From the NCBI GenBank assembly GCA_964413375.1, contig CAYPSI010000120.1:4607-68606 (forward strand): 64,000 nucleotides of DNA, in the 5' to 3' direction. This stretch comes from an uncultured Spirochaetales bacterium (GTDB lineage Bacteria; Myxococcota_A; UBA9160; SMWR01). Below the pieces are notes generated by a model. That model ran no database searches, had not been told where the DNA came from, and saw only the letters and a program-made list of their open reading frames with translations. Within the stretch, counting starts at the first letter, position 1, and each line of letters opens with the position of its first letter. Of this stretch, positions 10,753-51,593 are shown one piece after another. The position numbers and the translations under genes are program-made.

Positions 10753-11247
10753 ATGTACGCCAAACTCTTCGCGCGGGATCTCGCGATCGTGGCGACGATC
10801 GTGGCACTCTGGAGGCTCACTGCCCGCTTCTCCGTGGGGGACGGACCGATCGCCGACCTGAGCGGGCTGCTGCTGGGGGCGGCTCTCGGCGCGTGCGCGC
10901 TTCCGCTCCACGAGTGGGGCCACTTTCTCGGCGGCCTGGCGAGTGGAAGCGCGATGCGCCCGACCGAGAGCCTGCGCAAGCTGTTCTCCTTCAGCTTCGA
11001 CTCGCGCAGCAACTCGCAACGCCAGTTCCTCGCGATGTCCTTCGCTGGATGGGCGGGGACGGCAGCGGCCGTCTGGGTCGCCTACGGGCTGCTGCCGTCG
11101 GATCTACTGGCAACTCGCGTGGCGCGCGGGATGACGCTCTTGTCCGTCCTCCTCGTCGTGGTCACCGAGGTGCCGCTGCTGGTGCGCGCGTTTTGGACGG
11201 GAAGGATTCCGCCGGTGGAGACGGTCAAGCCCCACCCTACGGCCTAG
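10753..11247 (+). CDS. small polytopic membrane protein with HExxH motif (DUF3267-like putative zincin)
   Basis: ATG 10753 follows GGGAG. It has about 4 hydrophobic segments and LHEWGHFLGG (HExxH) after TM2. The family assignment comes from motif plus architecture only. Confidence 0.55.
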   Translation: MYAKLFARDLAIVATIVALWRLTARFSVGDGPIADLSGLLLGAALGACALPLHEWGHFLGGLASGSAMRPTESLRKLFSFSFDSRSNSQRQFLAMSFAGWAGTAAAVWVAYGLLPSDLLATRVARGMTLLSVLLVVVTEVPLLVRAFWTGRIPPVETVKPHPTA

Positions 11248-11284
11248 CGCGCTTTCGAGCGCACGCGGGTGTACACTGGGCTCC

Positions 11285-11890
11285 GTGCGCGAGTTCCTCC
11301 CGGGCATCCTCGTCTGGCCCCGGCTCTCCGAGCGCCACGGCTACGACTTCAATGGAACCCTGGTCCTCCACGAAGGCGGAAACCTCTGCATCGACCCGGT
11401 CGAGCCGCCGGACGAGGTCCTCGAAGGGCTGGCCAAGGAGGGCGTCGCGCGCATCCTGCTCACCAACCGCAACCACACGCGTGCGGCGAACCGCGTTCGC
11501 GAACGCACGGGCGCGGCGACCTCGATCCACCCGGCCGATGCCGAGTACGCGCGCGGTCAAGGAGTGATCCTCGACGCGGAGCTCGCGATTGGTGAGCAGA
11601 TCGGTCCCTTCCGGGTGGTGGCCGTCCCTGGGAAGTCGCCCGGCGAGATCGCGCTCCACGATGCTCGGCGGCGCCTGCTCGTGGTGGGAGACGCACTGAT
11701 CGGAAATCCGCCGGGGAAGCTCTCGCTGCTCAGCGAGCGCGTGATGGACGACCCCGCACGGCTGCGCGCGAGCGTGCGTAGTCTCCTCGAGCTCGACTTC
11801 GACGCAATCCTCGTGGGCGACGGCGCGCCGATCGCCAGCGGAGCCCGCGAGCGCCTGGCGGAGCTCGTGACGAGCTTCCCCGCCGGCTGA
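11285..11890 (+). CDS. MBL-fold metallo-hydrolase
   Basis: Track ORF (GTG start). ILLTNRNHTRAA, VVAVPGKSPGEIAL and LLVVGDALIG fit the beta-lactamase-fold pattern, but the first metal motif is atypical. Confidence 0.6.
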   Translation: MREFLPGILVWPRLSERHGYDFNGTLVLHEGGNLCIDPVEPPDEVLEGLAKEGVARILLTNRNHTRAANRVRERTGAATSIHPADAEYARGQGVILDAELAIGEQIGPFRVVAVPGKSPGEIALHDARRRLLVVGDALIGNPPGKLSLLSERVMDDPARLRASVRSLLELDFDAILVGDGAPIASGARERLAELVTSFPAG

Positions 11891-11892
11891 GC

Positions 11893-12166
11893 GTGTACCG
11901 CTTCGCGCCGAAGCTCGCTGCACTGCTGCTGCTGGCCGGCGCGGCCGCATGCACGAGTCTCGTCGCCCCTCGTCCTCGTGGTACGACTCGGGAGAGCGCG
12001 CCAGGCGAACTCCTGCGGCTCGCTCCGAAACGTGGCCTACGAGCTGCGCCAGGCCGGAGTCAGCGTGGCCGTGATCAAGGGCAGGGGCTGGGTCGGCTCG
12101 TGCAGCCCGAGCCTCCTGCGCGACATGAATGCCGTCCTCGCCCATCTCTTCGACTCCAGGATGTAA
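11893..12166 (+). pseudogene. small membrane/lipoprotein-like gene apparently frameshifted at a C4 run (or a sequencing error)
   Basis: Frame 1 from GTG 11893 gives VYRFAPKLAALLLLAGAAACTSLVA with high GC3, then decays. From about 11966 the high-GC3 frame shifts to the one ending at TAA 12166 (...NVAYELRQAGVSVAVIKGRGWVGSCSPSLLRDMNAVLAHLFDSRM). The switch coincides with CCCC at 11966-11969. Removing one C restores a roughly 90-aa ORF. Confidence 0.35.
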
Positions 12167-12190
12167 CGCGGCACGAGGTCCGACCCGACG

Positions 12191-13243
12191 ATGCACGCCT
12201 ACCAGCTCCTCGACTGGCAGAAGGCGGGCTTCCGCGAGGTCGCGGTGCCCGAGCCGGGTCCCGGTCAGGTGCGGGTGCGCATCGGCGGCGCCGGGCTCTG
12301 CCACAGCGATCTGCTCTTCCTCGACGCGCCGCCCGGGCGCTGGCCCTTTGCGCTGCCGATGACCCTCGGCCACGAGAACGCGGGCTGGGTCGACCGGATC
12401 GGACCGGGCGTCGAGGGCTTCGCCGAAGGCGACGCGGTGCTGCTCGAGACACACTGGTGGTGCCGTCGCTGCGAGTTCTGCCGCAGGGGCGCCGACAACT
12501 ACTGCACCCGCGGCTGGGGGCGCGCCCACGGCGTGGGCGCGCCGGGCGGCCTCGCGCCCTATCTGGTGACCGAGGTCCAGCAGCTCGTACCCCTCGGCGA
12601 TCTCGAGCCGATCGATGTGGCCCCGCTGGCAGATGCCGGTCGCACCTCGTACCACGCGGTCAAGAAGAGCTTGCCGAAGCTCATCCCCGGCTCGACGGCA
12701 CTCGTGATCGGTGCCGGGGGCCTCGGCGGCTACGCCATCCAGTGGCTGCGCCTGCTCTCCCCCGCCCGCATCGTGGCCATCGACCTCGACGCGAAGCACC
12801 TCGAAGCGGCTCGAGAGCTCGGAGCGGAGGAGACGCTGATCTCGGATGGGGATGCCGCGGACGCATTCCGCGAGCTCAGCGGCGGGCGCGGCGCCGAGGT
12901 GGTCTTCGACTTCGTCGGCGTCGATGCGACGATGGAGCTCGCGCTGCGCAGCGCGCGGATCCTGGGCTCCGTGGCCTTCGTCGGCGCGGGCGGCGGGAGC
13001 GCGCGCATCGGCTGGGAAAGTCTCCCGCGCGACTGCGAGCTCTGGTCTCCGCAGGGGGGGACCCACCCCGAGCTGCACGAGGTCGTGAAGCTCTGCCAGC
13101 GCTTCCCGGTCCGGCATCGGGTCGAGCGCTTCGCCTTCGACGAAACTCCGCTCGCGTACGAGCGGCTGCGCGCCGGCGATCTCGCCGGACGAGCGGTCGT
13201 CCTTCCCTCGCAGTCGCAACGCGAGTCCAGACGGACTCGCTGA
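12191..13243 (+). CDS. zinc-dependent alcohol dehydrogenase (MDR family)
   Basis: GLCHSDLLF, LGHENAGWV, a CRRCEFCRRGADNYC structural-zinc cysteine cluster, and a GAGGLGGYA Rossmann motif. Confidence 0.85.
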   Translation: MHAYQLLDWQKAGFREVAVPEPGPGQVRVRIGGAGLCHSDLLFLDAPPGRWPFALPMTLGHENAGWVDRIGPGVEGFAEGDAVLLETHWWCRRCEFCRRGADNYCTRGWGRAHGVGAPGGLAPYLVTEVQQLVPLGDLEPIDVAPLADAGRTSYHAVKKSLPKLIPGSTALVIGAGGLGGYAIQWLRLLSPARIVAIDLDAKHLEAARELGAEETLISDGDAADAFRELSGGRGAEVVFDFVGVDATMELALRSARILGSVAFVGAGGGSARIGWESLPRDCELWSPQGGTHPELHEVVKLCQRFPVRHRVERFAFDETPLAYERLRAGDLAGRAVVLPSQSQRESRRTR

Positions 13244-13253
13244 GGAGCCACTC

Positions 13254-14561
13254 ATGGACGAGCCCCTGCCCTTCCTGATCAACGACGCCGACAACCACTT
13301 CGTCGAGCCGCTCGACGTGTACGAGCGCTACATCGAGCCCCGCTGGCGTGACAAGGCGGTTCGCTGGGTGAAGGACCCCAAGGGCGAGCTCGTCCAGCTC
13401 TTCGCCGGACGCCCGTCGAAGACGCGCCTCTCCCGCGACTCGGCGCCCGAGAACGAGGCGGAGCTCGAGAAGCTCGCAGCGCGCATCTCGCCGACTCCGG
13501 GCAGCGACGCGCTCGCCCCGGGCGACGGTGGAGCGCGGGCGCCGGGCATGTTCCTGCACCGCCTCAACCCCTACAAGGGCAGGCCTCCCGCCGAGCAGAA
13601 GGCGCTGCTCGCGAAGTTCATGCAGCAGCGGGAGGCCTGGGGCAGCCGCGAGGGTCGCCTCGAGCTGATGGACGAACAAGGCATCCACGCGGCGCTGATG
13701 TTCCCGGGCCTGCTGCTGGCACTCGAGTTCGAGTTCCAGGACGACGTCGACGCGCTGCACGCGAACGCGCAGGCCTTCAACCGCTGGATCTACGACGAGG
13801 TGGGTTACGCGCACCAGCAGCGCCTCTTCCTGCCGCCCTACATCCCGCTGGCCGACGTCGACCTCGCGGTGCGCGAGCTCGAACGCGTGATCCGCGAGGG
13901 CGCTCCGCTGGTACAGATCGTCACGGGACACGCACACGGCGGCCGCGACAATCCGCGCGGGGGCCGCTCGCTCGCCGATCCGCTCTTCGACCCCTTCTGG
14001 GCGCGCATCGACGAGGCCGGGGTCCGCGTGACGACGCACCTCGGCCCCACCGACTACGCCAAGTACGGCGCCGATTGGAGCGAGGACCCGGAAGCGGTGC
14101 TGCGCGACTACGACGCGCTGCAGTGGGTGCTCTACTGGGGCGACCGCCCGGCGATGGAGACGGTCGCCGGCATGATCCTGCACGGCCTCTTCAGCCGCTT
14201 CCCCCGGATCCGCGTGTGCATCGCGGAGCAGGGCACCGTGTGGCTTCCCTACCTGCTGCGCAAGATGGACCACGCCTTCCTGATGGGGCGCAAGGCGCGC
14301 TTCGGCAGGCTCGACCGCCGCCCGAGCCAGATCTTCCGCGAGCACTTCATCGTGGCGCCCTTCCCCGAGGAGAACGTGAAGCGCGTGGTGGCCGAGGTCG
14401 GCGTCGAGTCGATCGTCTTCGGCTCGGACTTCCCGCACGGCGAGGGACTGGCCTTCCCGAGCCAGTACGTGGCAGCGCAGCTCCAGGGCATGCCGGACGC
14501 CGAAGTGAAGGCGATCATGCGCGACAACCTGGCGCGCTTCCTCGATCTGCCGGCGCCCTGA
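13254..14561 (+). CDS. amidohydrolase family protein (PF04909 / ACMSD-like), paralog 1
   Basis: N-terminal INDADNHFVEP (metal-binding HxH-type start) and C-terminal VFGSDFPHGEG, typical of Amidohydrolase_2. Confidence 0.8.
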   Translation: MDEPLPFLINDADNHFVEPLDVYERYIEPRWRDKAVRWVKDPKGELVQLFAGRPSKTRLSRDSAPENEAELEKLAARISPTPGSDALAPGDGGARAPGMFLHRLNPYKGRPPAEQKALLAKFMQQREAWGSREGRLELMDEQGIHAALMFPGLLLALEFEFQDDVDALHANAQAFNRWIYDEVGYAHQQRLFLPPYIPLADVDLAVRELERVIREGAPLVQIVTGHAHGGRDNPRGGRSLADPLFDPFWARIDEAGVRVTTHLGPTDYAKYGADWSEDPEAVLRDYDALQWVLYWGDRPAMETVAGMILHGLFSRFPRIRVCIAEQGTVWLPYLLRKMDHAFLMGRKARFGRLDRRPSQIFREHFIVAPFPEENVKRVVAEVGVESIVFGSDFPHGEGLAFPSQYVAAQLQGMPDAEVKAIMRDNLARFLDLPAP

Positions 14562-14598
14562 CGCGGGGTGCCCGAGCCTCGAAAGGATGCCACGAGCT

Positions 14599-16281
14599 TC
14601 AGCGTCCGGTCCGCGCAGGAGCGTTCGTCAAGATCGTCCCGGGCAGGCGGTCGAGGCGCTCGACGATCGGAACGCCGTCGGAGCGGATCGGAACGCCGGC
14701 GACCAGCACGTGGTCGATCCCGACCGGCGCATCTGCCACGAGGCGCTCGCCGTCGGCCGGCATGTCGCGCACGCGTCGGATCGGACCCGGCGACAGCCGC
14801 TCGTAGTCGAGCACCACGAGGTCTGCGGGAGCCCCGACCTGCAGCAGGCCCCGGTGGAGCTCCATCACCTCGGCAATCTCCCCACTGAGCTTGCGGATGC
14901 CCCGCTCGAGGGTCATCACCTCCCGGTCGCGGACCCAGTGCGCCAGGAAGTCCGTCGGCAGGATTGCGTCGCAGATCTGGGCGACGTGCGCCCCGGCGTC
15001 CGAGAGGCCGAGAATGCAGCCGTCCGCCTGGAGCAGCCGCGTCACGCCTTCGACGTCATCGTTCGCGAAGGTCACGCAAAGGCGCGTGCAAAGCCCGTCG
15101 TCGATCGAGAGCTCGCAGATCGCATCGAAGGGGGAGCTTCCGCGCGCGGCGGCGATGCTCCCGATGCTGCGCCCGACGAGCTCCGGGTGCGCGGGCGATT
15201 CCAGCACCCGCATCCCGTCCCAGCGGCTGTTGAGCAGGCCATTCTCGTCGAGATTCGCCTGCACCCGGGCGCGCCAGCCGAGGTCGGCATAGAGACCCGC
15301 GCGCTTCTCGTGCGGCAGCGCGACCAGCTCGGAGAAGGCCGGCATCACGTAGAACGCGGTGGGCTCGCGCATCAGCAGCTCCTGCTCGATCGGGCGGCAG
15401 GTCACCTGCACCCAGACCCTTGCGCCGGCGCGCCGCCGGGCTTCGTGATCCGCGAGCTTCTGCTGGTAGGGCGCCCGCTTCACCTCGGGCGGATAGGTCA
15501 GGATCGCAGACCAGTGGAGCGGTCGACCGATGCGCCGCTGGAGCGCGTAGACCCAGGCGTAGTCCTCGCCGGGCGCCACGTGCACGACCCCGTGGCCGAG
15601 CTCGCCGACGACCTCCATCAACGCCTCGGTCTCCTGCTGCGTCGCCGCCATCGAAGGGACCGGCCGGCCGCCGTCCCCCAGGTGGAAGCCCGCGCGATCG
15701 GTCGAGAAGCCGAGCGCTCCGCCGCGAAGCGACTCGGCCACCAGCTGCTTCATCTGCGCGATCTCGCGCTCGCTCGCAGGACGCTCGTAGGCCTCGTCGC
15801 CCAGCGCGTAGAGGCGGACCGCGCTATGACCGACGTAGCCGCCGAAATGGATCGCGCATCCCCGGCGGCGGACCGCGTCGAGGTACTCGGGGTAGGACTC
15901 GAAGTCCCACGCCACGCCCGCCTCGAGGGTCGCGAGCCGCATGTCCTCGACCTTGTCGAGCGTGCGCAAGAGCGACGCCCGCCCTTCGGGCCGGGTCGGC
16001 GCCAGGCTATAGCCGCAGTTGCCGGCCACCACCGAGGTGACCCCGTGCCAGGAGGAGGGCGTCAGCGCCGGGTCCCAGAGCACCTGAGGGTCGTAGTGGG
16101 TGTGGATGTCGATGAAGCCCGGCACGACCAGCCGGCCCGACGCGTCGATCTCTCTCGCGCCGCTGACGCGTGCGCCGATCTCGGCAACGCGCCCCCCCGC
16201 GATTCCGACGTCGGCGCGGCGCGCCGGCGCTCCGGTCCCGTCGATGAGCGTTCCGCCCCGGACCGCGATCTCGTGCGCCAC
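14599..16281 (-). CDS. N-acyl-D-amino-acid deacylase (D-aminoacylase) family amidohydrolase
   Basis: IAVRGGTLIDGTG...VVPGFIDIHTHYD...HGVTSVVAGNCG. The GTG at 16281 follows GGGGAGGG and leaves a 22-nt gap to the upstream gene. The track start at 16356 would overlap that gene. Confidence 0.8.
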   Translation of the reverse strand: MAHEIAVRGGTLIDGTGAPARRADVGIAGGRVAEIGARVSGAREIDASGRLVVPGFIDIHTHYDPQVLWDPALTPSSWHGVTSVVAGNCGYSLAPTRPEGRASLLRTLDKVEDMRLATLEAGVAWDFESYPEYLDAVRRRGCAIHFGGYVGHSAVRLYALGDEAYERPASEREIAQMKQLVAESLRGGALGFSTDRAGFHLGDGGRPVPSMAATQQETEALMEVVGELGHGVVHVAPGEDYAWVYALQRRIGRPLHWSAILTYPPEVKRAPYQQKLADHEARRRAGARVWVQVTCRPIEQELLMREPTAFYVMPAFSELVALPHEKRAGLYADLGWRARVQANLDENGLLNSRWDGMRVLESPAHPELVGRSIGSIAAARGSSPFDAICELSIDDGLCTRLCVTFANDDVEGVTRLLQADGCILGLSDAGAHVAQICDAILPTDFLAHWVRDREVMTLERGIRKLSGEIAEVMELHRGLLQVGAPADLVVLDYERLSPGPIRRVRDMPADGERLVADAPVGIDHVLVAGVPIRSDGVPIVERLDRLPGTILTNAPARTGR

Positions 16282-16303
16282 GCTGCCCTCCCCGGCGCGC
16301 CCT

Positions 16304-17488
16304 TCAGCGTCCGGCCGGTAGCTCGAAGCCGTACAGGCGCGCAGCGTTGCCAGCAACGATCGCGCGCGCCTCTTCGGCCGGAACCCCCGCGAGGAAGCCC
16401 GCCGCGATCTGCTGGCTGCGCGGGAAGGTCGACTCGGTGTGCGGGTAGTCGCTCCCCCAGGTGATCGCGTCCACGCCGATCAGGTCGCGCAGGCGCACTC
16501 CGGTAGCGTCCTCCTGGAAGCTCGCGAAGCAGTTCCGGCGCCAGAACTCGGAGGGCAATACGCCGCGCTCCTTGAAGCGGTACCAGTTGCCACGCGCCGG
16601 ACGGTCCGTGTAGGTGTAGTCCATCTGCTCCAGGAAGAAGGGAATCCAGCCGAGCTCGTGCTCGACCGAGCCCACCCGCAGCCGCGGAAAGCGCTCGAAG
16701 ACCCCTTCGAGGATCAGGTCCGCGAGCGCCTGGCGAACCTGATAGTCCTTGTTGATGAAGACGGAGGGAGGCACCCGCTTCACGTCGAGGTGGAAGGCCG
16801 CGTCGCCCCCGCGCGGATCGCCTCGATCGGTGGCCACGTGCAGGCTGATCGGGAGTCCCTGGTCCTGTGCCGCGGCCCAGAAGGGCTCGTAGACGTCCGA
16901 GTGGAAGGGGGCCCAGGGGGGAGGTTTCACGGTGATCAGCACCCCCGCGAGCCCCGCCCGACGCACCCGCTCGAGCTCGGCGATCGCGGCGTCGATCTCG
17001 TCGACATTCACCATCGCGATCCCCTTCAGGCGCGACGGATCCTGCGCGCAGAAGTCCACGATCCAGTCGTTGTAGGCGCGCATCGCGGCGCTCACCACCT
17101 CGGTGTTGGGGACCGAGAAGATCACCAGCCCCTCGCTCGGGTAGAGGACGGAGCCCCAGACCCCGTCCTGCTCGTTCTCGGCGAGATAGCGCTGCGGATC
17201 GTAGGCGGCAGCACGGACGTCCTCGAAGCGCGCCGAGGTCACGAGCCTGGCGGGGTCCTTCGCGAAGCGGGCGCCGGTCTGGATCCCGACGAAGGACATC
17301 GTCTTGCGGCCGTCGACGACCCACCAGTCGCCGTCGTGCTGCGAGACCACGCGCGGCGCACGCTCGACGAGCGCGCGGGGAACGCGGGCCGTCCACAGGT
17401 CCGGCGGCTCGACGATGTGCGAATCCGAAGAGATCATCCAGCCGCCGGCGGGCGGCTTCGCTTCCTGGGAGCTCCGGGAGGGCGCCAT
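16304..17488 (-). CDS. amidohydrolase family protein (PF04909), paralog 2
   Basis: MISSDSHIVEPPDLW and ITWGSDYPHTEST. An alternative start is ATG 17437. Confidence 0.8.
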   Translation of the reverse strand: MAPSRSSQEAKPPAGGWMISSDSHIVEPPDLWTARVPRALVERAPRVVSQHDGDWWVVDGRKTMSFVGIQTGARFAKDPARLVTSARFEDVRAAAYDPQRYLAENEQDGVWGSVLYPSEGLVIFSVPNTEVVSAAMRAYNDWIVDFCAQDPSRLKGIAMVNVDEIDAAIAELERVRRAGLAGVLITVKPPPWAPFHSDVYEPFWAAAQDQGLPISLHVATDRGDPRGGDAAFHLDVKRVPPSVFINKDYQVRQALADLILEGVFERFPRLRVGSVEHELGWIPFFLEQMDYTYTDRPARGNWYRFKERGVLPSEFWRRNCFASFQEDATGVRLRDLIGVDAITWGSDYPHTESTFPRSQQIAAGFLAGVPAEEARAIVAGNAARLYGFELPAGR

Positions 17489-17517
17489 CAGCTTGCCAAC
17501 CTTTCTGCGCTCCGGCG

Positions 17518-18105
17518 TCAGCGCCCGGTTTCGGGCAGCTTCGGAAGCTCGGCCTCGACCGGGACGCCCAGCGACTCGGCGACCATCGAGAGCATCGTGT
17601 ACTGCCCCACGATGAAGGGGATCTCGATCCGCTGGGCCTCGTCGAAGCCGGGCGCGAGTGCGGCCCAGGTCGCATCCGAGATGCGCTGGTTCGCGTGGAG
17701 CTCGTCAGCCGCGGCCAGGAGCATCCGCTCGCTCTGCGTCCAGTCCGCTGCAATCTTCCGCTGCGCCACGCGGGCGACCTCGTCTTCGCTGATGCCCGCC
17801 GCGCGGGCGTAGTGGACGTGGTGCCCCCACTCGAAGGCCGAACGACAGTTCCAGGCCGCCCGCAGCGCGAGCAGCTCGGAGTGGCGACGCGAGAGCACAC
17901 CCCGGGTCGCGAGCGTAGCGCTGAACTCGAGGAAGGGGCCGAGCAGGGTCGGGTGCCGCGCGATCACGGTCAGGATCGGGAGCGGCCGGGCTGGAGCGCG
18001 CCCTTCGAGCCCCGCCACGCGGCGGACGGTCGACTCGAGGCGCTCGCGCGTCTCGGGGCTCCACTCCTCCGGCGGGAGCGGCTCGATGCGAAGCGGGGCC
18101 CGCAC
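17518..18105 (-). CDS. carboxymuconolactone decarboxylase (AhpD-like) family protein
   Basis: C-terminal part of track ORF 17518..18627. It contains ELLALRAAWNCRSAFEWGHHV. The GTG at 18105 lies 2 nt after the stop of the upstream amidohydrolase (18108), which suggests translational coupling. Confidence 0.7.
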   Translation of the reverse strand: MRAPLRIEPLPPEEWSPETRERLESTVRRVAGLEGRAPARPLPILTVIARHPTLLGPFLEFSATLATRGVLSRRHSELLALRAAWNCRSAFEWGHHVHYARAAGISEDEVARVAQRKIAADWTQSERMLLAAADELHANQRISDATWAALAPGFDEAQRIEIPFIVGQYTMLSMVAESLGVPVEAELPKLPETGR

Positions 18106-18107
18106 GC

Positions 18108-19220
18108 CTACAGCGCGTAGAGGCGGGCCGCGTTGCCACCCACCATCTTGCGGCGCTCCTCGGGCGGAACGTCGCCGAAGTGCTTCTCGATGTACACGCG
18201 CGATTCGGGCCAGCTGCTGTTCACGTGGGGGTAGTCGCTCGACCACATGATGTTCTCGACGCCGATGATGTCGCGATTGCGCACGCCCACCACGTCGTCG
18301 ATGAAGGTGCCGAGCACCTGGCGATGGAAGTAGAAGCTCGGCGGCTCGCTCAGCTCGGACTTCGTGTGGTAGCGGTGACGCTGGAAGACGTGATCCATCC
18401 ACGGGATCAGGAAGGCCATCCAGCCGATGCCGCTCTCGACCGAGATCAGCTTGAGCTTCGGATGGCGCTGGAGGACTCCCGAGAAGATGAAGGTCGCGAT
18501 CGGCTCGCACATCACGGATTTGTTGACGGAGATCAGGGCCATCAGGTTCTTCTCGAGGTCGCGGCTCACCGGGCGCGTGCCCAGATGGAAATGGATCGGC
18601 AGGTTCAGGTGCTCGAGGGCAGCCCACAGCCGCTCGTAGTGCGGATCGAGATAGGACTTGTCGTCCGGCGGCGAGTCGACATAGGCCGGCACGGCCGGGA
18701 GCAGCACGCCGCGCAGGCCGAGCGCAGCACAGCGCTGCGCCTCCTCGAGCGCAGCGTCCAGATCCCAGATCGGAATTTCACCGATGCCGATCAGGCGCTG
18801 CGGACACGCGCGACAGAACTCGGCCAGCCACTCGTTGTAGGCGCGCATCATCACCCGCTGCATCGGACGCTCGAGGGTCCGGATCGCCACGCCACCGCCC
18901 GCCCCGCTGCCAAAGAGCACCTGAGCGTCGACACCGTCGAAGTCCATGTCTTCGATACGCGCAGCGGGATCCCAGCCGCCGCGCCGGCCCTCGGACTTGC
19001 TCTTCGCCAGCAGCTTCACGTCTTTCGACGCGACGCCCGCGGAGCCCTCGAGCAGGCTGATCGGGCGCTCGTTGCCCTCGAAGACGAGGAAGTCCCGGTC
19101 GCCGCGCGGCTCGATGCGCGGCATCCGGTCGCGCCATTGCGACGGAACGCGCTCGGCGTACATCGTCGGGGGCGGGTTCACGTGATCGTCGGCCGAGATG
19201 ATCCGCGAATCCGTGCTCAC
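18108..19220 (-). CDS. amidohydrolase family protein (PF04909), paralog 3
   Basis: IISADDHVNPPP and IMWSSDYPHVNSSWPES. Confidence 0.8.
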   Translation of the reverse strand: MSTDSRIISADDHVNPPPTMYAERVPSQWRDRMPRIEPRGDRDFLVFEGNERPISLLEGSAGVASKDVKLLAKSKSEGRRGGWDPAARIEDMDFDGVDAQVLFGSGAGGGVAIRTLERPMQRVMMRAYNEWLAEFCRACPQRLIGIGEIPIWDLDAALEEAQRCAALGLRGVLLPAVPAYVDSPPDDKSYLDPHYERLWAALEHLNLPIHFHLGTRPVSRDLEKNLMALISVNKSVMCEPIATFIFSGVLQRHPKLKLISVESGIGWMAFLIPWMDHVFQRHRYHTKSELSEPPSFYFHRQVLGTFIDDVVGVRNRDIIGVENIMWSSDYPHVNSSWPESRVYIEKHFGDVPPEERRKMVGGNAARLYAL

Positions 19221-19347
19221 CGCGCTGCCTCCTCACCCGGTGCCGGGCTCCGGGGACGCTGCCCCGCAGACAGGGTTCCCGCGCCGCCCGTCGGGCGCAA
19301 GAGGCCTGCCGCTCGTGCCGGCGGCGGGATTCCGGTTAGAATGCGGC

Positions 19348-19878
19348 ATGCGGATGTGGCTCACCGTCGCTTGCCTGGCAGTCCTCGCGGGCGCGGCCCC
19401 GGCCCGCGCCGTCGAGCTCGCGGTGGGCGCCCCGGCGCCGGAGTTCGCGCTTCCCGGGTCGGATGGCGAGCTGCACCGGCTCGCGGACTCCGTCGGGAAG
19501 CGCGGCGTGGTGCTCGCGTGGTTCCCGAAGGCCTTCACACCCGGCTGAAGCGAGGAGCTCCGGGCGCTGCGGGACAGCGCCGAGGCGATCGACCGCTATG
19601 ACGTGGCGGTCTTCATGCTGAGCCTCGACACGCCCGAGAAGAACCGCGAGTTCGCGAAATCCCTCGAGGCGAAGCACGTGCTGCTCTCCGACCCCACGGG
19701 CGAGGTGGCGAAGGCCTACGGGGTGACCGGCTTCGCGGGGCACTTCGCGAAGCGCTGGACCTTCTACATCGACGCCAGCGGAACGATCCGCGAGATCGAT
19801 CGCGAGGTCCTGCCCGCCAGCGCCGGCCAGGACATCGCGCGCAAGCTCGCAGAGCTGGGTTTCCCGAAGCGCCCCTGA
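19348..19878 (+). CDS. periplasmic AhpC/TSA (BCP/PrxQ-like) peroxiredoxin with in-frame TGA (probable selenocysteine) at 19546-19548
   Basis: Track ORFs 19198..19548 and 19603..19878 share one frame, interrupted only by TGA. Signal peptide MRMWLTVACLAVLAGAAPARA. GKRGVVLAWFPKAFTPG-[TGA]-SEELRAL aligns with the family motif FPxxFTPGC(T/S)xE. High-GC3 coding signal continues after the TGA (DTPEKNREFAKSLEAKHVLLSDPTGEVAKAYGV). Confidence 0.7.
19558..19584 (+). promoter_or_regulatory. SECIS-like hairpin downstream of the in-frame UGA
   Basis: Lower stem CUC(19558-60)/GAG(19582-84), 2-nt bulge, perfect 7-bp upper stem GGCGCUG(19563-69)/CAGCGCC(19575-81), loop CGGGA(19570-74). The apical loop lies 22-26 nt after the UGA and has G in loop positions 2-4. 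Confidence 0.5.
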
Positions 19879-19890
19879 GCGCTGGCGGTG

Positions 19891-21831
19891 TCACTCGAGC
19901 CGCAGGTCCTCGAGCCGGGGCTCCTTCGTCCAGCGCCAGTAGTCGAGGAGCCTCCACGGCGAGAGCACGGTCACGCGTCCCTCGCGATTGCGATACCAGC
20001 TGCTCTTGATCGAGGGGTGCGACCAGACCATGCGCGAGAGCGCGTCGGCGAGCTTCGCCTCGTAGGCGTCGTGGACCTCCGGCCGGCATTCGATCGCCTC
20101 GAAACCGCCTTCGAGCAACGCCTTCAGGCAGCCGAGGATGTAGCGGACCTGGCACTCCGAGTGGAAGACGAGGCTGCCACCGTGCGCGAGGTTGGTTCCC
20201 GGACCGTAGATGCAGAAGAGGTTCGGAAAGCCCGGGACCGTGATCCCGAGGTACGCGGAGGGTTCGTCGCCCCACTGCTCGGCGAGCTTCACGCCGCCCT
20301 TCCCGGTGATCTCCATCGGCCAGAGGAAGCGGTTGGCGTGGAAGCCCGTCGCATAGACGATGACGTCGACGGGGACTTCGGCGCCGCTCTCGCAGACGAT
20401 GCGGTCCTCGCGGATCTCTGCGATCGGGTCCGTCACGAGATCCACGTCGTCGCGCCGGAGAGCGGCAAGCCAGCTGCCGTTGTCCTGGAGCGTCCGCTTG
20501 CCGAGGCATACGTAGTCCGGAACGACCTTCGCGAAGAGCTCCTCGTCGCCGCCGACCTGGTCCTTCAAATACTGGGTGAAGGCCTGGCGAGTGGCATCGT
20601 TCAACGCGCTCGTCGAGCGCTCCGGGTGCGGCCACTCCGGGTCGATGCGCATGGCCTCGAGCCCGCCGTCGCAGCCCGGCCAGAAGAGCAGGAAGCGGTA
20701 CCAACGGCCGTAGTAGGGCAGATGCCGCAGGGCCCACTTCTTCCCGGGTCCGACCTTCGCGTGGTAGTTCGGGTTCGGGAACATCCACGGCGCCGAGCGC
20801 TGGAAGACGGTGAGCCGGCCCGTTCGTTCGGCGATCGCCGGCACGATCTGGAACGCGCTCGCGCCGGTGCCGATCACGGCGACGCGCTTGCCCGACAGAT
20901 CGCAGCCCTGCTGCCAGGCCGCGGAGTGCATCGAGGGCCCCTGGAAGCGGTCGATGCCGCGGATGTCCGGGAGCTTGGGGCGGTTCAGCTGACCCACTGC
21001 GCTGACGAGCGCGTTCGCCTGCAGGGTCTCGCTGCTGCCGTCGGCCTTCCGGATCCGCACGGACCAGCGCCGCGCGCTCTCGTCCCAGCTCGCCGCCACG
21101 ACCTCCGTCTCGAAGCGGATCCGGTCGCGGACGCCGTACTTCTCCATGCAGCGCTCGAAGTAGGCCTGGAGCTCGCTCTGCTGCGCGAAGAACTCCGTCC
21201 AGTCCGGGTTGGGCTCGAAGGAGTAGCAGTAGAAGTGGTTGCCGACGTCGACGCGACAGCCGGGGTAGCGGTTCTCGAACCAGGTGCCGCCGACCGCCGG
21301 GTTCTTCTCGATCACCGTGAAGGGGATCCCGGCCTCCTTCAAACGGATCGCCGCGAGGAGCCCCGCCATGCCGCAGCCGACGACGACGACGTGGAAGGCC
21401 CGTCTCGTCTCCTCCGGCACCGGACGGTCCCAGTGGAACTCGCGCTGGTCGCGCCCGTCGAGCTCCATCTCCTCGAGCATCATCGGCACGTATTCTTCGG
21501 GCACGTCGCCCGCGACCAGGAAGCACATCATCTCCCGGATCGTCTCGGGCGAAGGAGGCGGCGGGAGCCGGCAGCCGCCGTCGCGGAAGGCCTTGATCAC
21601 CTCGAGCGCTCGAGCGCGGACCACCGCCTTGTCCGCTTCGGACATGAACCCCTGCACTTCGTTCAGGAACACACCGCGCGGCCGGATCGGATCGCGCAGC
21701 AGACTCGCGTCTCCGCTCATGTGGACCATCGACATCAGCAGGGTCGGGATGCTCACGTCCTCGAGCGCAGCCGCGATGGTTGCGTCGTCGTCCGCAATCG
21801 GCAGTCCGGCCGGATCGACGCGATCGGTCAC
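19891..21831 (-). CDS. Baeyer-Villiger (flavin-containing) monooxygenase, HAPMO-like with N-terminal extension
   Basis: VVVGCGMAGLLAA (FAD GxGxxG), BVMO fingerprint FQGPSMHSAAW (FxGxxxHxxxW), second Rossmann motif VAVIGTGASA. The GTG at 21831 overlaps the GST stop as GTGA. The product is about 646 aa. Confidence 0.85.
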   Translation of the reverse strand: MTDRVDPAGLPIADDDATIAAALEDVSIPTLLMSMVHMSGDASLLRDPIRPRGVFLNEVQGFMSEADKAVVRARALEVIKAFRDGGCRLPPPPSPETIREMMCFLVAGDVPEEYVPMMLEEMELDGRDQREFHWDRPVPEETRRAFHVVVVGCGMAGLLAAIRLKEAGIPFTVIEKNPAVGGTWFENRYPGCRVDVGNHFYCYSFEPNPDWTEFFAQQSELQAYFERCMEKYGVRDRIRFETEVVAASWDESARRWSVRIRKADGSSETLQANALVSAVGQLNRPKLPDIRGIDRFQGPSMHSAAWQQGCDLSGKRVAVIGTGASAFQIVPAIAERTGRLTVFQRSAPWMFPNPNYHAKVGPGKKWALRHLPYYGRWYRFLLFWPGCDGGLEAMRIDPEWPHPERSTSALNDATRQAFTQYLKDQVGGDEELFAKVVPDYVCLGKRTLQDNGSWLAALRRDDVDLVTDPIAEIREDRIVCESGAEVPVDVIVYATGFHANRFLWPMEITGKGGVKLAEQWGDEPSAYLGITVPGFPNLFCIYGPGTNLAHGGSLVFHSECQVRYILGCLKALLEGGFEAIECRPEVHDAYEAKLADALSRMVWSHPSIKSSWYRNREGRVTVLSPWRLLDYWRWTKEPRLEDLRLE

Positions 21832-22442
21832 GCGTTCGCGCTCGGCCGTGCCTTGGTGGCCTCGAGCCAGGCCGCGAGATTCTTGAGGCTCGGATCGAGC
21901 GCCTGCCCCACCATGCCGCCGAAGTCGAGGAAGGCGTAGAGCACGACGTCGGCCAGCGTGAAGCGGCCCGGCACGAGGGTCGTGCGGCCGGCGAGCTGCC
22001 CATCGAGCCACTCGAGACCGTCCCGGGCAATCGCCTTCAGGCCCGCGGCCGCCTCCGGCAGCGTGCGAATGCGATCCTTGAAGATCGGGAGCCCCTCGGC
22101 AAAGCGGAAGCCGTCGGCCATCGGCTGCACGATCTTCCACTCGATGCGGCGCACCCACATGCGCGTCAGCGCGCGTTCCGTCGGCGTGCTCCCGATCAGC
22201 GCGGGCAAGGGCTTCTGCTCCTCGATGAGCTCGCAGATCGCAATCGTTTCCGAGATCACGCTGCCGTCGGAGAGCTCCACGCAGGGAAGCTGTCCGGCCG
22301 GATTCTTGGCGAGGTAGGGCGCCTTGCGATTCGCGCCGCCGGCGAGGTCGACCTTCTCGACCTCGGAGAAGGAGAAGCCCTTCTCCGCGGCGAACACGCG
22401 CACGAGCTTCGGGTTGGGACCGATCGAGTCGTATAGTTTCAC
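21828..22442 (-). CDS. glutathione S-transferase family protein
   Basis: VKLYDSIGPNPKLVRVFAAEKG...QLPCVELSDGSVISETIAICELIEE is a thioredoxin-like N-domain with a helical C-domain. The GTG at 22442 follows GGCAGGAGAAG. Confidence 0.8.
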   Translation of the reverse strand: MKLYDSIGPNPKLVRVFAAEKGFSFSEVEKVDLAGGANRKAPYLAKNPAGQLPCVELSDGSVISETIAICELIEEQKPLPALIGSTPTERALTRMWVRRIEWKIVQPMADGFRFAEGLPIFKDRIRTLPEAAAGLKAIARDGLEWLDGQLAGRTTLVPGRFTLADVVLYAFLDFGGMVGQALDPSLKNLAAWLEATKARPSANA

Positions 22443-31158: not shown

Positions 31159-31252
31159 ACACGCGAGCGTAGCGTCCAGATTTTCGGCGCGCGGTTGACG
31201 CGGCCCCATGCGTTGCGGTACCGAAGGGCTTTCACCCCGAAGGACCGAAGAG

Positions 31253-32443
31253 ATGACGACCCTCCCCTACCGCATCTACGACGCCGACAACCACTACTAC
31301 GAGCCCGATGACTGCTTCACCCGGCACATCGAGGCCGGCTTCCGGGAGCGCAGCGTCCGCATCGAGCGCAGTCGGCCCGGCCCGGGCACGATGTTCGTCG
31401 GCGACGAACGCTGCCACTTCTTCAGCGTCGGCGCGGGCGACAGCGTCGGGGCTCCCGGCGCGATGAAGGAGTTCCTGCGCGGCCGCAGCGACGAGGGCGG
31501 GAGCCCGAGCCTGCGCCCGATCGATGGCCTCGCGGTGCCCGAGTTCACCGACCGCCGTGCCCGCCTCGCGAAGATGGACGAGCAGCGGGTCGAGGCGTGC
31601 CTGATCCTGCCGACGGCCGGGGTCGGCGTGGAGCCTCAGCTGCGCGAAGCGCAGCACCGGGAGGCGCTCTATCCGAGCCTGCGCGCGTTCAACCGCTGGC
31701 TCGAAGAGGACTGGGGCTACGGCCGCGACGGGCGCATCTACGGCGCGCCTCTCGACTCACTCGTCGATCTGGACGAGGCCGTCGCCGAGCTCGATCGCGT
31801 GCTCGCGCGCGGGGCGCGCTTCCTCATCGTCACGGCCGGCCCGGTGGACGGGCGCTCCCCCGGCGATCCCCATTTCGACCCCTTCTGGGCGCGCTGCCAG
31901 GAGGCGGGAATCAACGTCGTCTACCACATCGGGCGCACACCCTTCAGCGAGATGTACAACACGCCGTGGGGGCTGCGGCCGCACCCGCCCTCGCACCGCC
32001 ACTCGCTGATGGAGTACACGCTCTCCTTCACCGAGCGTCCGATCGCGGACACGCTGACGGCGCTCGTCGCCGATAACCTTTTCGGGCGCTTCCCGGCACT
32101 CAAGATCCTGTCGGTCGAGTACGGGGCCTCGTGGCTGGCTCCCCTCGTGCACAAGCTCGACAAGATCTCGCGCCTGTACAGCAAGGACATGTGGCGCTTC
32201 GGCGCCCCGCCGCTGCGCCCGAGCGATACGCTCCGGCAGAATCTCTGGATCGCTCCCTTCTACGAAGACGACGTCGTCGCGCTCGCGAAGCTGATCGGCG
32301 CAGACCACGTGCTCAACGGCTCCGATTATCCGCACCCGGAAGGCCTGCTCTGGCCGGCCGAGTTCGCCGAGGAGTGCGCGGGCCTTCCCGAGGCGGACGT
32401 GAAGAAGATCATGCGCGACAACCTCGCCGGCCTCGTGGCTTAG
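31253..32443 (+). CDS. amidohydrolase family protein (PF04909), paralog 4
   Basis: MTTLPYRIYDADNHYYEP and VLNGSDYPHPEGL. ATG 31253 is in frame with track ORF 31208..32443. Confidence 0.8.
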   Translation: MTTLPYRIYDADNHYYEPDDCFTRHIEAGFRERSVRIERSRPGPGTMFVGDERCHFFSVGAGDSVGAPGAMKEFLRGRSDEGGSPSLRPIDGLAVPEFTDRRARLAKMDEQRVEACLILPTAGVGVEPQLREAQHREALYPSLRAFNRWLEEDWGYGRDGRIYGAPLDSLVDLDEAVAELDRVLARGARFLIVTAGPVDGRSPGDPHFDPFWARCQEAGINVVYHIGRTPFSEMYNTPWGLRPHPPSHRHSLMEYTLSFTERPIADTLTALVADNLFGRFPALKILSVEYGASWLAPLVHKLDKISRLYSKDMWRFGAPPLRPSDTLRQNLWIAPFYEDDVVALAKLIGADHVLNGSDYPHPEGLLWPAEFAEECAGLPEADVKKIMRDNLAGLVA

Positions 32444-39546: not shown

Positions 39547-41544
39547 TCACGAGCGCGACTCGAAATACATCCGGCGCAGCAGCGTGTGCACCGGGTGGTC
39601 CCGCCGCGCGCGCAGCTCGTCGGAGAGCCCCTGCGTGGCACGCGCCGCCCGGTAGGCCGGGAGCGCGCGCGCGCGGGCCTCGACCTGCGACTCGAGGTTC
39701 TCGAGCAGCGCCGCCAGCTCGACCCGCTCGCGCACTCGGTCGTTCCGATCGAGGATCTCGGCAGCCGCCGCGGGCGGCGCCGCCACCTCCGGGTCGCTTC
39801 CGCCGAGCGCGGCGAGCCGCGCCCGGGCCTGGTCGCGCTCCGCGCGGAGCGCGACGAGCCCGCGCTCGAGCTCCTCCACGCCCATCCCCTCCGCGAAGCC
39901 GAGGTGCAGGATCGCTTCGCTGTTCGCGAGCCCCGCGCGCACCCCCGCGATCTGCTCCGCACCGGCCTGCCCCTGCTCGACCCACGCGTCGACGACCTGC
40001 GAGCCCGTGACCCGCTCGGCCACCGCGCGCCCGAGAGCCAGGAACTCGCTCTCGCGGCCCTGGTTCTGGAGCGCGGCACCGAGCGCCGGCCAGAGCCGAC
40101 GCTCGAAGGGGAAGAGCAGCAGGGCCTGCCGGTACGCCTGCGTCGCGAGCTCGATCTCCGCCTGGGTCGGGTGCGCCGCGTACGCGAAGAAGGCGTCCCC
40201 GAGCCCTCGCGCCGCCTCGTGCGCGGCGAACCAGGCGGAATCCGGCACTCCCTGCTGGCCCGCCGTCTCGGCGAACTCCCGGAAGAAGGCGAGCATGCGC
40301 GCATGGATCCGCGCCGCGTTTCGGCTGTGGAGATCCGCCGCCTCGGGCTTCTCCGCCGCCAGTGCCAGATAGTGGTCCGCGGCGTTGAGCCCCGCCTCCT
40401 GGATCTCCTCCCAGAGGCCACGCATCGCCGCGAGATAGGCCGCGCGTCCGACGCCGGCGTAGCCGAGATCCTGCCAGCCCTCTCCCTCGGCGCCGCGGAG
40501 CTCGCGGTAGACGGCGATCGCGCCTTCGATGTCGAAGGGGAGCGCGATCTCGGGATCCGCGCCGAGCCGCTGCTTCGCGGCGTAGACCTCGCCGATCAGG
40601 CGCAGCGCCCGCGTATGCACGGCGCAGCGACCCTGCGCGGTGTCCGCGCGCTCGAGCGCGCGCTCGTAGGCCGCTCCCGCCACGCGGATCGCTTCGGAGG
40701 TCTTGGGCTCGAAGCCCTTCTCCGCGAGCAGTCCGCGCGCGCGATCGTGATGCTTCGCCGCCTCGAAGAGCGCGAGCGTGAAGGTGAGGCTCCCCGCGTC
40801 GGACTCCGGGCCGTCGAGCCTCGCCACGATCCGCTCGACGTAAGCGCGCGAGGAGGCCTCCCGCGGAACCACGCGCGGGTGGGCACCCACGCGCCCGTCG
40901 AGGAGCATCCGGACCACCGCGCCGAGCGGGTCGAGACCGCGATCGATCCCGCGCTCCTGGCTGCGGATCAAGATCAGCCGCGCGACGTTCTCGTAGACGT
41001 AGGGGAGTGCCGCGACGAAACCCGCGCCGGTTCTTTCGTCCAGCGCGAGCGCCCGAAGCGCCTCGAAAGAACCCTCGAGAGGAACCACCACCTCGAGCCA
41101 GAGAGAAAGCACCTCCGCGACGAAGTCGTGACGGCGCCCGGTGGCCAGCGCCTCGTGGGCCAGAACCGTGTGGTGCCAGTAGCGGTTCTCGTGGCGCCCG
41201 AGCCAGCGCTCGAGTGCGTGCGCGGCGCGCACGCTGCGCTCCAACGCCTCCGCATCTCCGGTGGCGAGGTGTTGCAGCAGCCAGGCGATCGCCGTGCGGC
41301 GCGTTGCGGTCTCTTCGAGCGATGCTGCGTCGGCCGCGCCGCCGTAGCCCGCGAGCACGCGCTCGAAGGGAGTCCCCGCCTCGCGCCCGTACTGCTCGAG
41401 CCTCGCGCTCAATGCGCCGGGATCTGCCGACGAGTAGACGTAGGCGTAGTCGAGGTAGGCGTCCCAGGCCGTCCCCTCGTCCGCGGCGGACGGGAGCGAC
41501 GCGCAGACTGCCGCCAGGAAGATGGCCAAGAGCGTGCTTCTCAT
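39547..41544 (-). CDS. 665-aa secreted all-helical (TPR-like) protein with C-terminal coiled coil, function unknown
   Basis: C-terminal two-thirds of track ORF 39547..42927. ATG 41544 overlaps the upstream stop as ATGA. Signal peptide MRSTLLAIFLAAVCASLPSAA. It shows Ala/Leu/Arg-rich helical repeats and then ERDQARARLAAL...LENLESQVEARARAL. Confidence 0.6.
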   Translation of the reverse strand: MRSTLLAIFLAAVCASLPSAADEGTAWDAYLDYAYVYSSADPGALSARLEQYGREAGTPFERVLAGYGGAADAASLEETATRRTAIAWLLQHLATGDAEALERSVRAAHALERWLGRHENRYWHHTVLAHEALATGRRHDFVAEVLSLWLEVVVPLEGSFEALRALALDERTGAGFVAALPYVYENVARLILIRSQERGIDRGLDPLGAVVRMLLDGRVGAHPRVVPREASSRAYVERIVARLDGPESDAGSLTFTLALFEAAKHHDRARGLLAEKGFEPKTSEAIRVAGAAYERALERADTAQGRCAVHTRALRLIGEVYAAKQRLGADPEIALPFDIEGAIAVYRELRGAEGEGWQDLGYAGVGRAAYLAAMRGLWEEIQEAGLNAADHYLALAAEKPEAADLHSRNAARIHARMLAFFREFAETAGQQGVPDSAWFAAHEAARGLGDAFFAYAAHPTQAEIELATQAYRQALLLFPFERRLWPALGAALQNQGRESEFLALGRAVAERVTGSQVVDAWVEQGQAGAEQIAGVRAGLANSEAILHLGFAEGMGVEELERGLVALRAERDQARARLAALGGSDPEVAAPPAAAAEILDRNDRVRERVELAALLENLESQVEARARALPAYRAARATQGLSDELRARRDHPVHTLLRRMYFESRS

Positions 41545-42635
41545 CCCTCGTGAAGCTCCCTTCGCATCCCGCGCGCGAGGCAATCGAGCGCCAGGGTCAG
41601 CTCCTCGCAGCGGTCCCCGGCGCGCCGCATCGGCGAGCGCTCGACCCAGAGGAGGAATGCGTTCACGTTCTTCGTCTCGACGAAACGCCAGGTACCGGCT
41701 TCGCTCGTGCACTCTTCGGGCCTCGCTACCGATGCGACGACGCGCTGGCGCAGCGCATCTTCCTCGCGGTCCGACAGGCAGGCCGCGAGGGCGGCGAGCG
41801 AGACGCCCTGCAGCTTCGAGCTCGCCGGCGTGGCAACGCTCGGAGACGCGGGCGGCGGCGGCGTGGGCGCGAGCGCGCGCCCGCTGGAAGGAGCCGGAGA
41901 CGCCGAGCCGGGAGAGGCCTGCGCGAAGCGCGGAGGGACGAGTGCTTGAGGCCGCGACGAGGCGGCGCGCGGCGACTCGCCCGCGCGTTCCCGGCGCGGC
42001 GCGCGCGACGAAAGCTCCGGCGATGCAGCCAACGCGAGCGGCGGAGCCAGCGGCGCTGCGAGATCCGCGAGCGTGCGCATCGCGCGGGGCGGCGCGCGGC
42101 GCGGGGCGACGCGCGGCGCAACGACAGTCTCGAGCGGCAGCGCGGCCACGCGCAGCGGCTCCGGCGCGATGACCGGTCGCACCGGCTCTCGCACCGTCCG
42201 CGCGGCCTCGGGTGCGGGCGGTGGCACTGACGACACGAGCCGAGCCGGCGCCGGATCGACGGCTCTCGCGACGAGCGGCTGCGCAGGCGGAGGCAGCTCC
42301 GGCTCTGGCAGAGCGGCCTCCGGCGGCGGGAGCTTCTCGGGCAGGTCGGGTGCGAGCGAGGCGATCTCCACCAGCAGCTCGGCGGGAGGCTCGAGCCAGA
42401 CCATCTCGCGCTCCGAGGGCTCGTCGAAGACGCTTGCGAGTGCCAGCAGCAACGCGAACGCCGCGCCGGCGAACGCTCCGCCGCGCAGCAGCGCACACAG
42501 CCCTCCCGCGCTCCCGAGCTCGCGCAGCGCGGTCCGCAGCCCCGCCGCGCTCGACGCCGAAGCGTGTGGCGAGGCCGGCAACGCGAGCCGCGCAGCGCCA
42601 AAGCCGTACTGAGCGACCAGACGCGCGTTCGTCAC
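41541..42635 (-). CDS. TonB-like proline-rich membrane-anchored protein with non-TonB C-terminal 4-Cys domain
   Basis: In frame with track ORF 41541..43055. The GTG at 42635 overlaps the upstream stop as GTGA. Single TM GGAFAGAAFALLLALASVF. Pro-rich spacer LPEKLPPPEAALPEPELPPPAQP...PPPAPE...PPPPASP. C-terminal roughly 90 aa: ACLSDREEDALRQRVV...ECTSEAGTWRFVETKNVNAFLLWVE...DRCEELTLALDCLARG. Confidence 0.55.
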   Translation of the reverse strand: MTNARLVAQYGFGAARLALPASPHASASSAAGLRTALRELGSAGGLCALLRGGAFAGAAFALLLALASVFDEPSEREMVWLEPPAELLVEIASLAPDLPEKLPPPEAALPEPELPPPAQPLVARAVDPAPARLVSSVPPPAPEAARTVREPVRPVIAPEPLRVAALPLETVVAPRVAPRRAPPRAMRTLADLAAPLAPPLALAASPELSSRAPRRERAGESPRAASSRPQALVPPRFAQASPGSASPAPSSGRALAPTPPPPASPSVATPASSKLQGVSLAALAACLSDREEDALRQRVVASVARPEECTSEAGTWRFVETKNVNAFLLWVERSPMRRAGDRCEELTLALDCLARGMRRELHEG

Positions 42636-47438: not shown

Positions 47439-47441
47439 GCC

Positions 47442-48626: not shown

Positions 48627-48750
48627 GCTGCGCCGCTTGCGGCATCGACGCCGTGCGGGCTCACGTCGCGCGCGGCGGCGCCGTGCGCGACGCCGCCCGA
48701 TGGCGTGCGACGGCCTCAGGAGCGGATCGGGGGCGCCCCGCGGCGCGAGA

Positions 48751-51343: not shown

Positions 51344-51593
51344 CGGTCTTCGCAATCGGTTGCAGGCAGCCTCCGGAGCGTGACGAAAGACCCGAAGCGA
51401 CCGCAGCGCTACGACCCCGTTGCCGGTGCACGCCGCACGTAGCGGCTGCGAAGCTCCCGCGCGAATCGCCCGCGCCGCCTTGGCTTTGGCCGCTGGTGAC
51501 TCGTGATACCGGTTCCCCCCGCGCGCTGGCCGATCTCTCCCCTTGCGACCGCGCGTTGGCCCCGCCGACGCGGTCGGGAGCGGAGGCCCTGCG

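Follow-up and report, generated by a model that had tools for sequence, protein, structure and literature searches.

A probable selenocysteine-containing, predicted exported BCP/PrxQ-type peroxiredoxin encoded through an in-frame UGA codon

In the 64-kb stretch of DNA analysed here (the window), two apparently separate open reading frames very probably constitute one gene for an exported BCP/PrxQ-type peroxiredoxin (Prx) whose peroxidatic residue is selenocysteine (Sec), inserted at a UGA codon decoded by SelB together with a hairpin shortly downstream (Table 1). Translation of 19198-19878 on the forward strand encountered a single internal stop, the TGA at 19546-19548, and ORFs 19198..19548 and 19603..19878, 405 nt apart, share a common frame; coordinates and translation therefore agree with the initial annotation, which had read the two ORFs as one TGA-split gene. 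ATG 19348 is the likely start codon. The read-through product matched the Pfam AhpC-TSA profile (PF00578) with 100.2 bits against a gathering cut-off of 26 (E=1e-28), and this match covered positions 1-123 of 124 and spanned the TGA, confirming the proposed identity as an AhpC/TSA protein of the BCP/PrxQ-like kind. Coding-type GC3 bias and family-like sequence had been reported to continue past the TGA, and both were recovered, with a GC3 after the TGA of 0.94-0.95, which is the full coding level, and a conserved 3′ part. Genome-wide reassignment of UGA was ruled out, as TGA is the stop codon of 30 of the 44 window genes. The region upstream of 19348 yielded no sigma-70-like promoter, and no terminator-like site was found between the Prx gene and the convergent monooxygenase ORF, the stop end of which lies 13 bp from the end of the Prx gene (window 19878-19891).

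Table 1. Features of the Prx locus and of the surrounding window (window positions)
Feature	Position	Strand	Basis or remark
Probable complete selenoprotein gene, 176-codon predicted exported BCP/PrxQ-type peroxiredoxin via UGA read-through	19348..19878	+	stop TGA 19876-19878
Predicted Sec-pathway signal peptide MRMWLTVACLAVLAGAAPARA	19348..19410	+	read from sequence
Active-site block W-F-P-K-A-F-T-P-G-U (PxxxTxxU), putative Sec codon TGA 19546-19548	19519..19548	+	homologue alignment
SECIS-like hairpin, stem GGCGCUG/CAGCGCC (19563-19569 / 19575-19581), loop CGGGA (19570-19574)	19563..19581	+	MFE, centroid, comparative data
Span matched by covariance model R1, UGA plus 45 nt	19546..19593	+	33.6 bits, E about 5.2e-8
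DsbD-type thiol:disulfide interchange protein	49538-51739	-	DsbD_N, DsbD_TM, Thioredoxin_7
DUF3570 outer-membrane-like protein	47442-48911	-	downstream of DsbD gene, one strand
ApbE flavin transferase	46470-47438	-	after DUF3570 gene, one strand
Amidohydro_2 genes	13254-14561, 16304-17488, 18108-19220, 31208-32443		
Amidohydro_3 gene	14599-16356		
Baeyer-Villiger-type flavin monooxygenase	19891-22158	-	
CMD/AhpD-like domain protein	17518-18120	-	

The TGA occupies the position of the catalytic Cys of the family. Of 1974 homologues found by protein search at E<=1e-5, the best 27 full-length sequences, some of them named Myxococcota, were aligned with the window protein, to which they are 57-71% identical. 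The TGA column held Cys in 27/27 of these homologues, within an invariant block WFPxAFTxGC(T/S)xE, and the earlier assignment of the TGA to the peroxidatic Cys position was thereby upheld. P60, T64, and G66 are invariant, U67 corresponds to the TGA, and the catalytic Arg R136 (KRWTFY), which lies after the TGA, is likewise invariant and aligns with the Arg of both BCP 3drn and AhpE. The sample is skewed towards Cys forms, given that automated gene calling ends Sec-type genes at the TGA and thereby keeps them out of any set of full-length proteins. The closest solved structures were BCP 3drn (E=8e-19) and AhpE Rv2238c, and the best NCBIfam match was NF006960 (BCP), at 75 bits versus a cut-off of 140 and hence below equivalog level, while NF053650 scored 58.9 bits versus a cut-off of 260. 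Typical members of the clade are likewise under every NCBIfam cut-off. The window protein is BCP-like yet outside every curated equivalog.

The same TGA recurs in many relatives. The DNA pattern WFPxAFTxG-TGA-xxE, which fixes about 20 bases and for which roughly a handful of chance matches are expected, was run on representative-genome and metagenome collections and matched at least 120 loci in each, 240 in all. At least 90 open codons followed the TGA in 223 of the 240 listed loci, and all 223 encode homologues of the window protein (37-80% identity). The listed loci are from MAGs labelled mostly Acidobacteriota/Vicinamibacterales, with Myxococcota, Gammaproteobacteria, Planctomycetota, Verrucomicrobiota, Actinomycetota, and others among the remaining labels. 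Among the matches listed, L232 (79-80%), L226 (77%), and L161 (73%) were closest; next came three MAGs of the genome collection, L070 (70%, labelled Spirochaetales), L094 (69%, Myxococcota), and L046 (68%, Myxococcales). Among all sequences compared, the nearest relative overall is the Sec form L232, to which the window gene is sister in a rough NJ tree. Around the window gene this tree mixes Sec and Cys forms, a pattern anticipated where Sec and Cys have been exchanged repeatedly within a family (PMC1794560). The Sec-Prx gene of L070 (CAZTOE010000072.1), which is binned as 'uncultured Spirochaetales', groups with Myxococcota in the tree, a placement that may reflect mis-binning or horizontal transfer.

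An independent assembly reproduces the TGA. L241, a 2198-bp Logan assembly of run SRR11849544 that also carries the neighbouring amidohydrolase, aligned to window 17575-19772 with 99.09% identity, 19 substitutions, and 1 gap, and both the TGA and the hairpin are kept. Four of the differences fall within the Prx gene, all of them in signal-peptide codons. The reproduction of the TGA in this 99.1%-identical sequence suggests that the codon, on which the initial annotation depended, is genuine. In L241 the gene was called as a 66-residue 'AhpC-TSA (weak)' product. The dN/dS ratio after the TGA was 0.22-0.49 against seven of the eight closest listed Sec-type relatives and 0.77 against L046, thus below 1 against all eight, and pN after the TGA (0.12-0.31) was broadly like that of the upstream half (0.16-0.23). 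The region after the TGA is under purifying selection, consistent with the conservation of the 3′ part that had been anticipated.

With respect to the residue that would resolve the oxidized enzyme, 195 of the 223 listed Sec-type relatives carry a Cys at +4 (U-T-A-E-C), and this is likely the resolving residue. In classical BCP proteins the spacing is CxxxxC (+5). The other 28 of the 223, which make up the sub-clade of the window gene, have no Cys anywhere in the mature protein, and the close Cys-type homologues of the window protein are also without a further Cys in the mature protein. The Prx-like thiol:disulfide oxidoreductase selenoproteins are defined by UxxC (PMC1088965); the window protein has T-P-G-U-S-E-E-L and lacks a Cys at +3, which places it outside the UxxC/UxxU oxidoreductases.

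The protein is also predicted to be exported. The N-terminal segment MRMWLTVACLAVLAGAAPARA has a basic n-region, a 13-residue hydrophobic core, and an AxA motif, after which the protein continues VELAVG..., and it would be cleaved after ARA. A similar hydrophobic N-terminal segment is found in all 27 aligned homologues, and at least nine of 12 N-terminal residues are hydrophobic in 182 of 204 Sec-type relatives. These features are consistent with the signal peptide predicted in the initial annotation. A lipoprotein attached via the Cys within the signal peptide was considered and rejected: as a lipobox T-V-A-C is poor, the hydrophobic core extends beyond the Cys, and homologues do not conserve this residue.

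Downstream of the UGA, the sequence GGCGCUG-CGGGA-CAGCGCC forms both the MFE and the centroid structure. Its 7-bp stem begins 14 nt after the UGA and is embedded in the codons for (R)A-L-R-D-S-A, and its loop lies 22-26 nt after the UGA, with G residues at 23-25 nt (counting the U of UGA as nt 1, nt 18-24 pair with nt 30-36 and the loop is nt 25-29). The hairpin as first described comprised this stem, loop, and position, all of which were substantiated, together with a 3-bp lower stem and a 2-nt bulge, which were not conserved. The three lower-stem pairs are formed in 56, 26, and 74% of relatives and the lower stem was not recovered by RNAalifold, and lower stem and bulge were dropped as parts of the element. 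The 66-nt local fold, at 71% GC, was no more stable than shuffled sequences (z=0.6), and the stability of the single hairpin was consequently discarded as evidence. Because the window hairpin alone is not beyond chance, its significance rests on comparative data. The 64-kb window contained no Rfam match at gathering thresholds, and no Rfam family fits the hairpin.

The comparative data provide clear evidence for selection on the RNA. Among 216 unique Sec-type relatives, every one of the seven stem positions is paired in 88-94%, and all seven pairs are present together in 159; the family loop consensus is CGKGA. Two main co-varying versions of the stem were observed, UCGCUC...GAGCGG (encoding SLRESG) and GCGCUG...CAGCGC (encoding ALRDSA, as in the window), along with smaller compensatory changes at synonymous sites (UCA/AGU, CUU/GAA, and UUC/AAC). 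In a set of 110 sequences, all less than 60% identical in protein to the window, 93.1% of cells were paired and 52 double-sided changes were counted versus 7.1+-2.3 in shuffles; the covariation score was 0.259 versus 0.089 in shuffles, with 0 of 500 shuffles reaching it and slid registers giving at most 0.108. RNAalifold predicted the same helix and nothing else. Codon use points in the same direction: the loop Arg codon in Sec forms is CGU in 173, CGG in 27, and CGC in 0, while Arg codons elsewhere in the same genes are 41% CGC and 8% CGU. Ser+6 is UCG in 93% of Sec forms, Ser+10 is AGC in 90%, and Glu+9 is GAG in 97%, and synonymous entropy is 0.2-0.9 bits over codons +4 to +10 versus 1.0-1.7 bits in the flanks. 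These results demonstrate that selection at the RNA level maintains a stem that displays a C-G-K-G-A loop.

The stem is partly forced by the peptide, given that A-L-R-D-S-A in GC-rich codons is almost self-complementary. Since the stem overlaps conserved codons in this way, DNA of Cys-type homologues was fetched as controls, yielding eight distinct Cys forms; a TGY version of the pattern run on viral contigs gave no match and hence no added Cys controls. The eight Cys forms had 4, 5, 7, 5, 7, 4, 4, and 5 of the seven pairs, fewer than Sec forms (Mann-Whitney p=4e-4; 7/7 in 2/8 versus 159/216), and L248, a Cys form, encodes the same ALRDSA peptide but disrupts the stem by using GCA CUA. Five of seven Cys forms have CGC as the loop Arg codon, and the loop is the best discriminator between Sec and Cys forms. 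Two Cys-type homologues, L243:3187-3234 (P0008) and L245:314-361 (P0005), form all seven stem pairs where the SECIS would lie, with CGC as the loop codon; these may be fossil SECIS elements left after a recent Sec-to-Cys conversion. Their 7/7 stems weakened the stem alone as a Sec/Cys discriminator, and a stem-only test was replaced by stem statistics, loop codon bias, and covariation.

The initial annotation had placed a SECIS-like element shortly after the TGA, and a covariance-model check of this region gave one significant match, precisely at 19546-19593. The model, R1, was built from the 110 relatives with less than 60% protein identity, with the window and all relatives of at least 60% identity excluded, and was run with filters off. 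The match was the sole significant one on both strands of the 64 kb, the next best scoring 9.3 bits. Sec relatives scored 42.6-48.6 bits and Cys homologues 9.3-25.2 bits (24-25 bits for L243 and L245), so that the window, with its 33.6 bits, falls under the other Sec forms and over all Cys forms.

Given these data, it is improbable that the locus is a pseudogene or a sequencing or assembly error, i.e., an ordinary Cys-Prx with a TGC-to-TGA change and a hairpin that is a by-product of the ALRDSA codons. Such a change requires one base only, Cys-type homologues are many and close (up to about 75% identity), two of them share the 7-bp stem without a UGA, and the window hairpin is no more stable than shuffles. 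However, the TGA persists in L241, an independent assembly separated from the window by 19 substitutions and 1 indel, the closest listed relatives L232 and L226 also have TGA, and the 3′ half is under purifying selection with a GC3 of 0.94-0.95. Moreover, the window stem is a perfect 7/7 and its loop codon is CGG, as in Sec forms, versus the CGC of most Cys forms.

A second possibility is that the UGA is read without selenium, by near-cognate insertion of Trp or Cys, the Sec machinery having been lost or never present and the gene being left over from a Sec ancestor. Among 41 ORFs of the 64-kb window scanned with Pfam, none matched SelA, SelB, or SelD, and ARAGORN found no tRNA or tRNA-Sec within the window, and no tRNA-Sec in 250 fetched loci. 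The absence of selA, selB, selD, and tRNA-Sec genes from the window is compatible with a selenium-free reading but uninformative for a stretch of 64 kb; the interleaving of Sec and Cys forms in the tree, which implies frequent conversions in the clade, would also fit it. We nevertheless give this explanation little credence, as loss of the Sec trait normally leads to gene loss or UGA-to-Cys conversion (PMC1794560), whereas the window gene retains its UGA, a perfect stem, and a G-rich loop, all shared with the strain-level variant L241; a peroxidatic Trp would in addition make an inactive enzyme, which is at odds with purifying selection. We infer from the Prx gene, together with Sec use in related lineages such as Anaeromyxobacter (PMC1794560), that the source organism probably has the Sec-decoding trait. 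Two further places in the window where coding segments abut in one frame, 46470-48950 (-) and 11135-13243 (+), were considered as candidate second selenoprotein genes, but each is a pair of neighbouring genes: a DUF3570 outer-membrane protein and ApbE in the first case, an MBL-fold hydrolase and a zinc-ADH in the second.

That the locus makes two products, a 66-residue secreted N-terminal fragment and a separate 91-residue protein from GTG 19603, is how gene callers treat it (the 66-residue call in L241 and the two ORFs listed in the window), but this is exceedingly unlikely because neither half has a complete thioredoxin fold, the Pfam profile is continuous across the TGA, relatives conserve codons 19549-19602, between the ORFs, at both the protein and the RNA level, and the same architecture occurs in at least 223 homologues with the hairpin exactly at the SECIS place.

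Under the favored interpretation, a single Sec-containing peroxiredoxin, the UGA at 19546-19548 would be decoded by Sec-tRNA(Sec) brought by the elongation factor SelB, which the hairpin 14 nt downstream would recruit as the ribosome reaches the UGA, as occurs with the SECIS of E. coli fdhF. The fdhF SECIS is a SelB-binding hairpin just 3′ of the UGA, with a stem from 11 nt, G23-U24 in its loop, and a bulged U. It resembles the window hairpin in being located within the coding sequence, at a short fixed spacer, with a small loop containing G/U (G26-K27 in the window family) that is constrained against codon bias, but differs in that the window stem starts 14 nt rather than 11 nt after the UGA and in that no conserved bulged U was seen. 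The full-length product would then leave via the signal peptide to the periplasm, where Sec67, positioned by T64 and R136, would reduce peroxides and be converted to a selenenic acid. Because the mature protein of the window sub-clade is without any Cys, members of this sub-clade presumably act as '1-Sec' enzymes, comparable to a 1-Cys Prx such as AhpE, the selenenic acid of which would be reduced directly by an external periplasmic thiol, possibly fed by DsbD. A DsbD-type gene is present in the window, and DsbD, DUF3570, and ApbE look like a periplasmic redox cluster; this cluster could be the source of reductant for the exported Prx, although the DsbD gene is 30 kb away and the connection is speculative. 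A periplasmic Prx with a lone Sec and no resolving Cys raises the question of its reductant.

Sec-Prx, characterized by TxxU or PxxxTxxU and belonging to COG1225 / PF00578, has been a known selenoprotein family since 2001-2005 (PMC1088965, PMC1794560, PMC13188914), with the PxxxTxxU motif as its definition (PMC13188914), and three Sec-Prx genes have been predicted in Anaeromyxobacter dehalogenans, a member of the Myxococcota (PMC1794560). The argument from precedent in the initial annotation is therefore well founded (PMC1794560, PMC1088965, PMC13188914), but the family extends beyond the anaerobes and deltaproteobacteria named there, the listed relatives being mostly Acidobacteriota/Vicinamibacterales MAGs. 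The window gene shares with the Sec-Prx family the Pfam domain, the active-site motif with Sec in place of the peroxidatic Cys, and a post-UGA hairpin with a small G-containing loop; it has each sequence-level feature of this family, namely the UGA at the Cys column, conservation on both sides, and a SECIS-like hairpin. There is no difference in family definition, and the window clade adds a predicted signal peptide. Judged by these features, the window gene appears to be an added member of the known Sec-Prx family, one that is usually mis-annotated.

Comparison with individual proteins places the window protein more precisely. PrxU of Eubacterium acidaminophilum is presented as an experimentally verified Sec-Prx in the work of Sohling et al. 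(2001), as cited in PMC13188914. Like PrxU (NF040737), the window protein would be a Prx with a peroxidatic Sec decoded from UGA, but it scored 46.4 bits versus the NF040737 cut-off of 270 and is not a PrxU equivalog. PrxU is cytoplasmic, longer (a 233-position profile), and of another Prx subfamily, whereas the window protein has a predicted signal peptide and is nearest to BCP/PrxQ and AhpE. The best curated and structure matches, BCP/PrxQ (E. coli Bcp, NF006960; Sulfolobus Bcp1, 3drn) and M. tuberculosis AhpE (Rv2238c), have the Thr, peroxidatic residue, and Arg in common with it, and the 1-Cys AhpE, like the window protein, is without a resolving Cys. These proteins are cytoplasmic and use Cys, in contrast with the predicted Sec and predicted export of the window protein.

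A narrow literature search found no paper on the exported clade specifically. It is possible, although we put this forward with some doubt, that a large exported BCP-type Sec-Prx clade with its own highly conserved SECIS, a 1-Sec sub-clade, and fossil stems in Cys descendants that record recent Sec-to-Cys conversions is previously undescribed. The same tentative reading, taken as a whole, includes a CGUGA loop within L-R-E/D-S codons, a clade missed by curated models and systematically truncated by gene callers, abundance in soil and freshwater Acidobacteriota and Myxococcota and thus in largely non-anaerobic lineages, and a sub-clade that has lost the +4 Cys.

The main value of these observations concerns annotation, given that standard gene callers split or truncate the Prx gene. 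As the clade falls under all NCBIfam cut-offs and its genes are called in truncated form, hundreds of exported Sec-Prx proteins from Acidobacteriota, Myxococcota, and other MAGs are probably missing from, or truncated in, protein databases. Presence of the Prx gene makes selenium use probable for the source organism and for many Acidobacteriota and Myxococcota MAGs from soil, and the extent to which soil bacteria use selenium may have been underestimated. Neither Sec decoding nor peroxiredoxins need to be understood differently in the light of these results.

Several further features of the window were noted. A 1126-codon ORF at 39547-42927 (-) fills approximately 4 kb in which a GC3-based gene filter had called nothing, and no Pfam match was found for it at E<=1e-5. 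Amidohydrolase genes are unusually dense in window 13254-19220 and 31208-32443, and the Prx gene is further surrounded by the monooxygenase and CMD/AhpD-like genes listed in Table 1, which suggests a catabolic gene neighbourhood around it.
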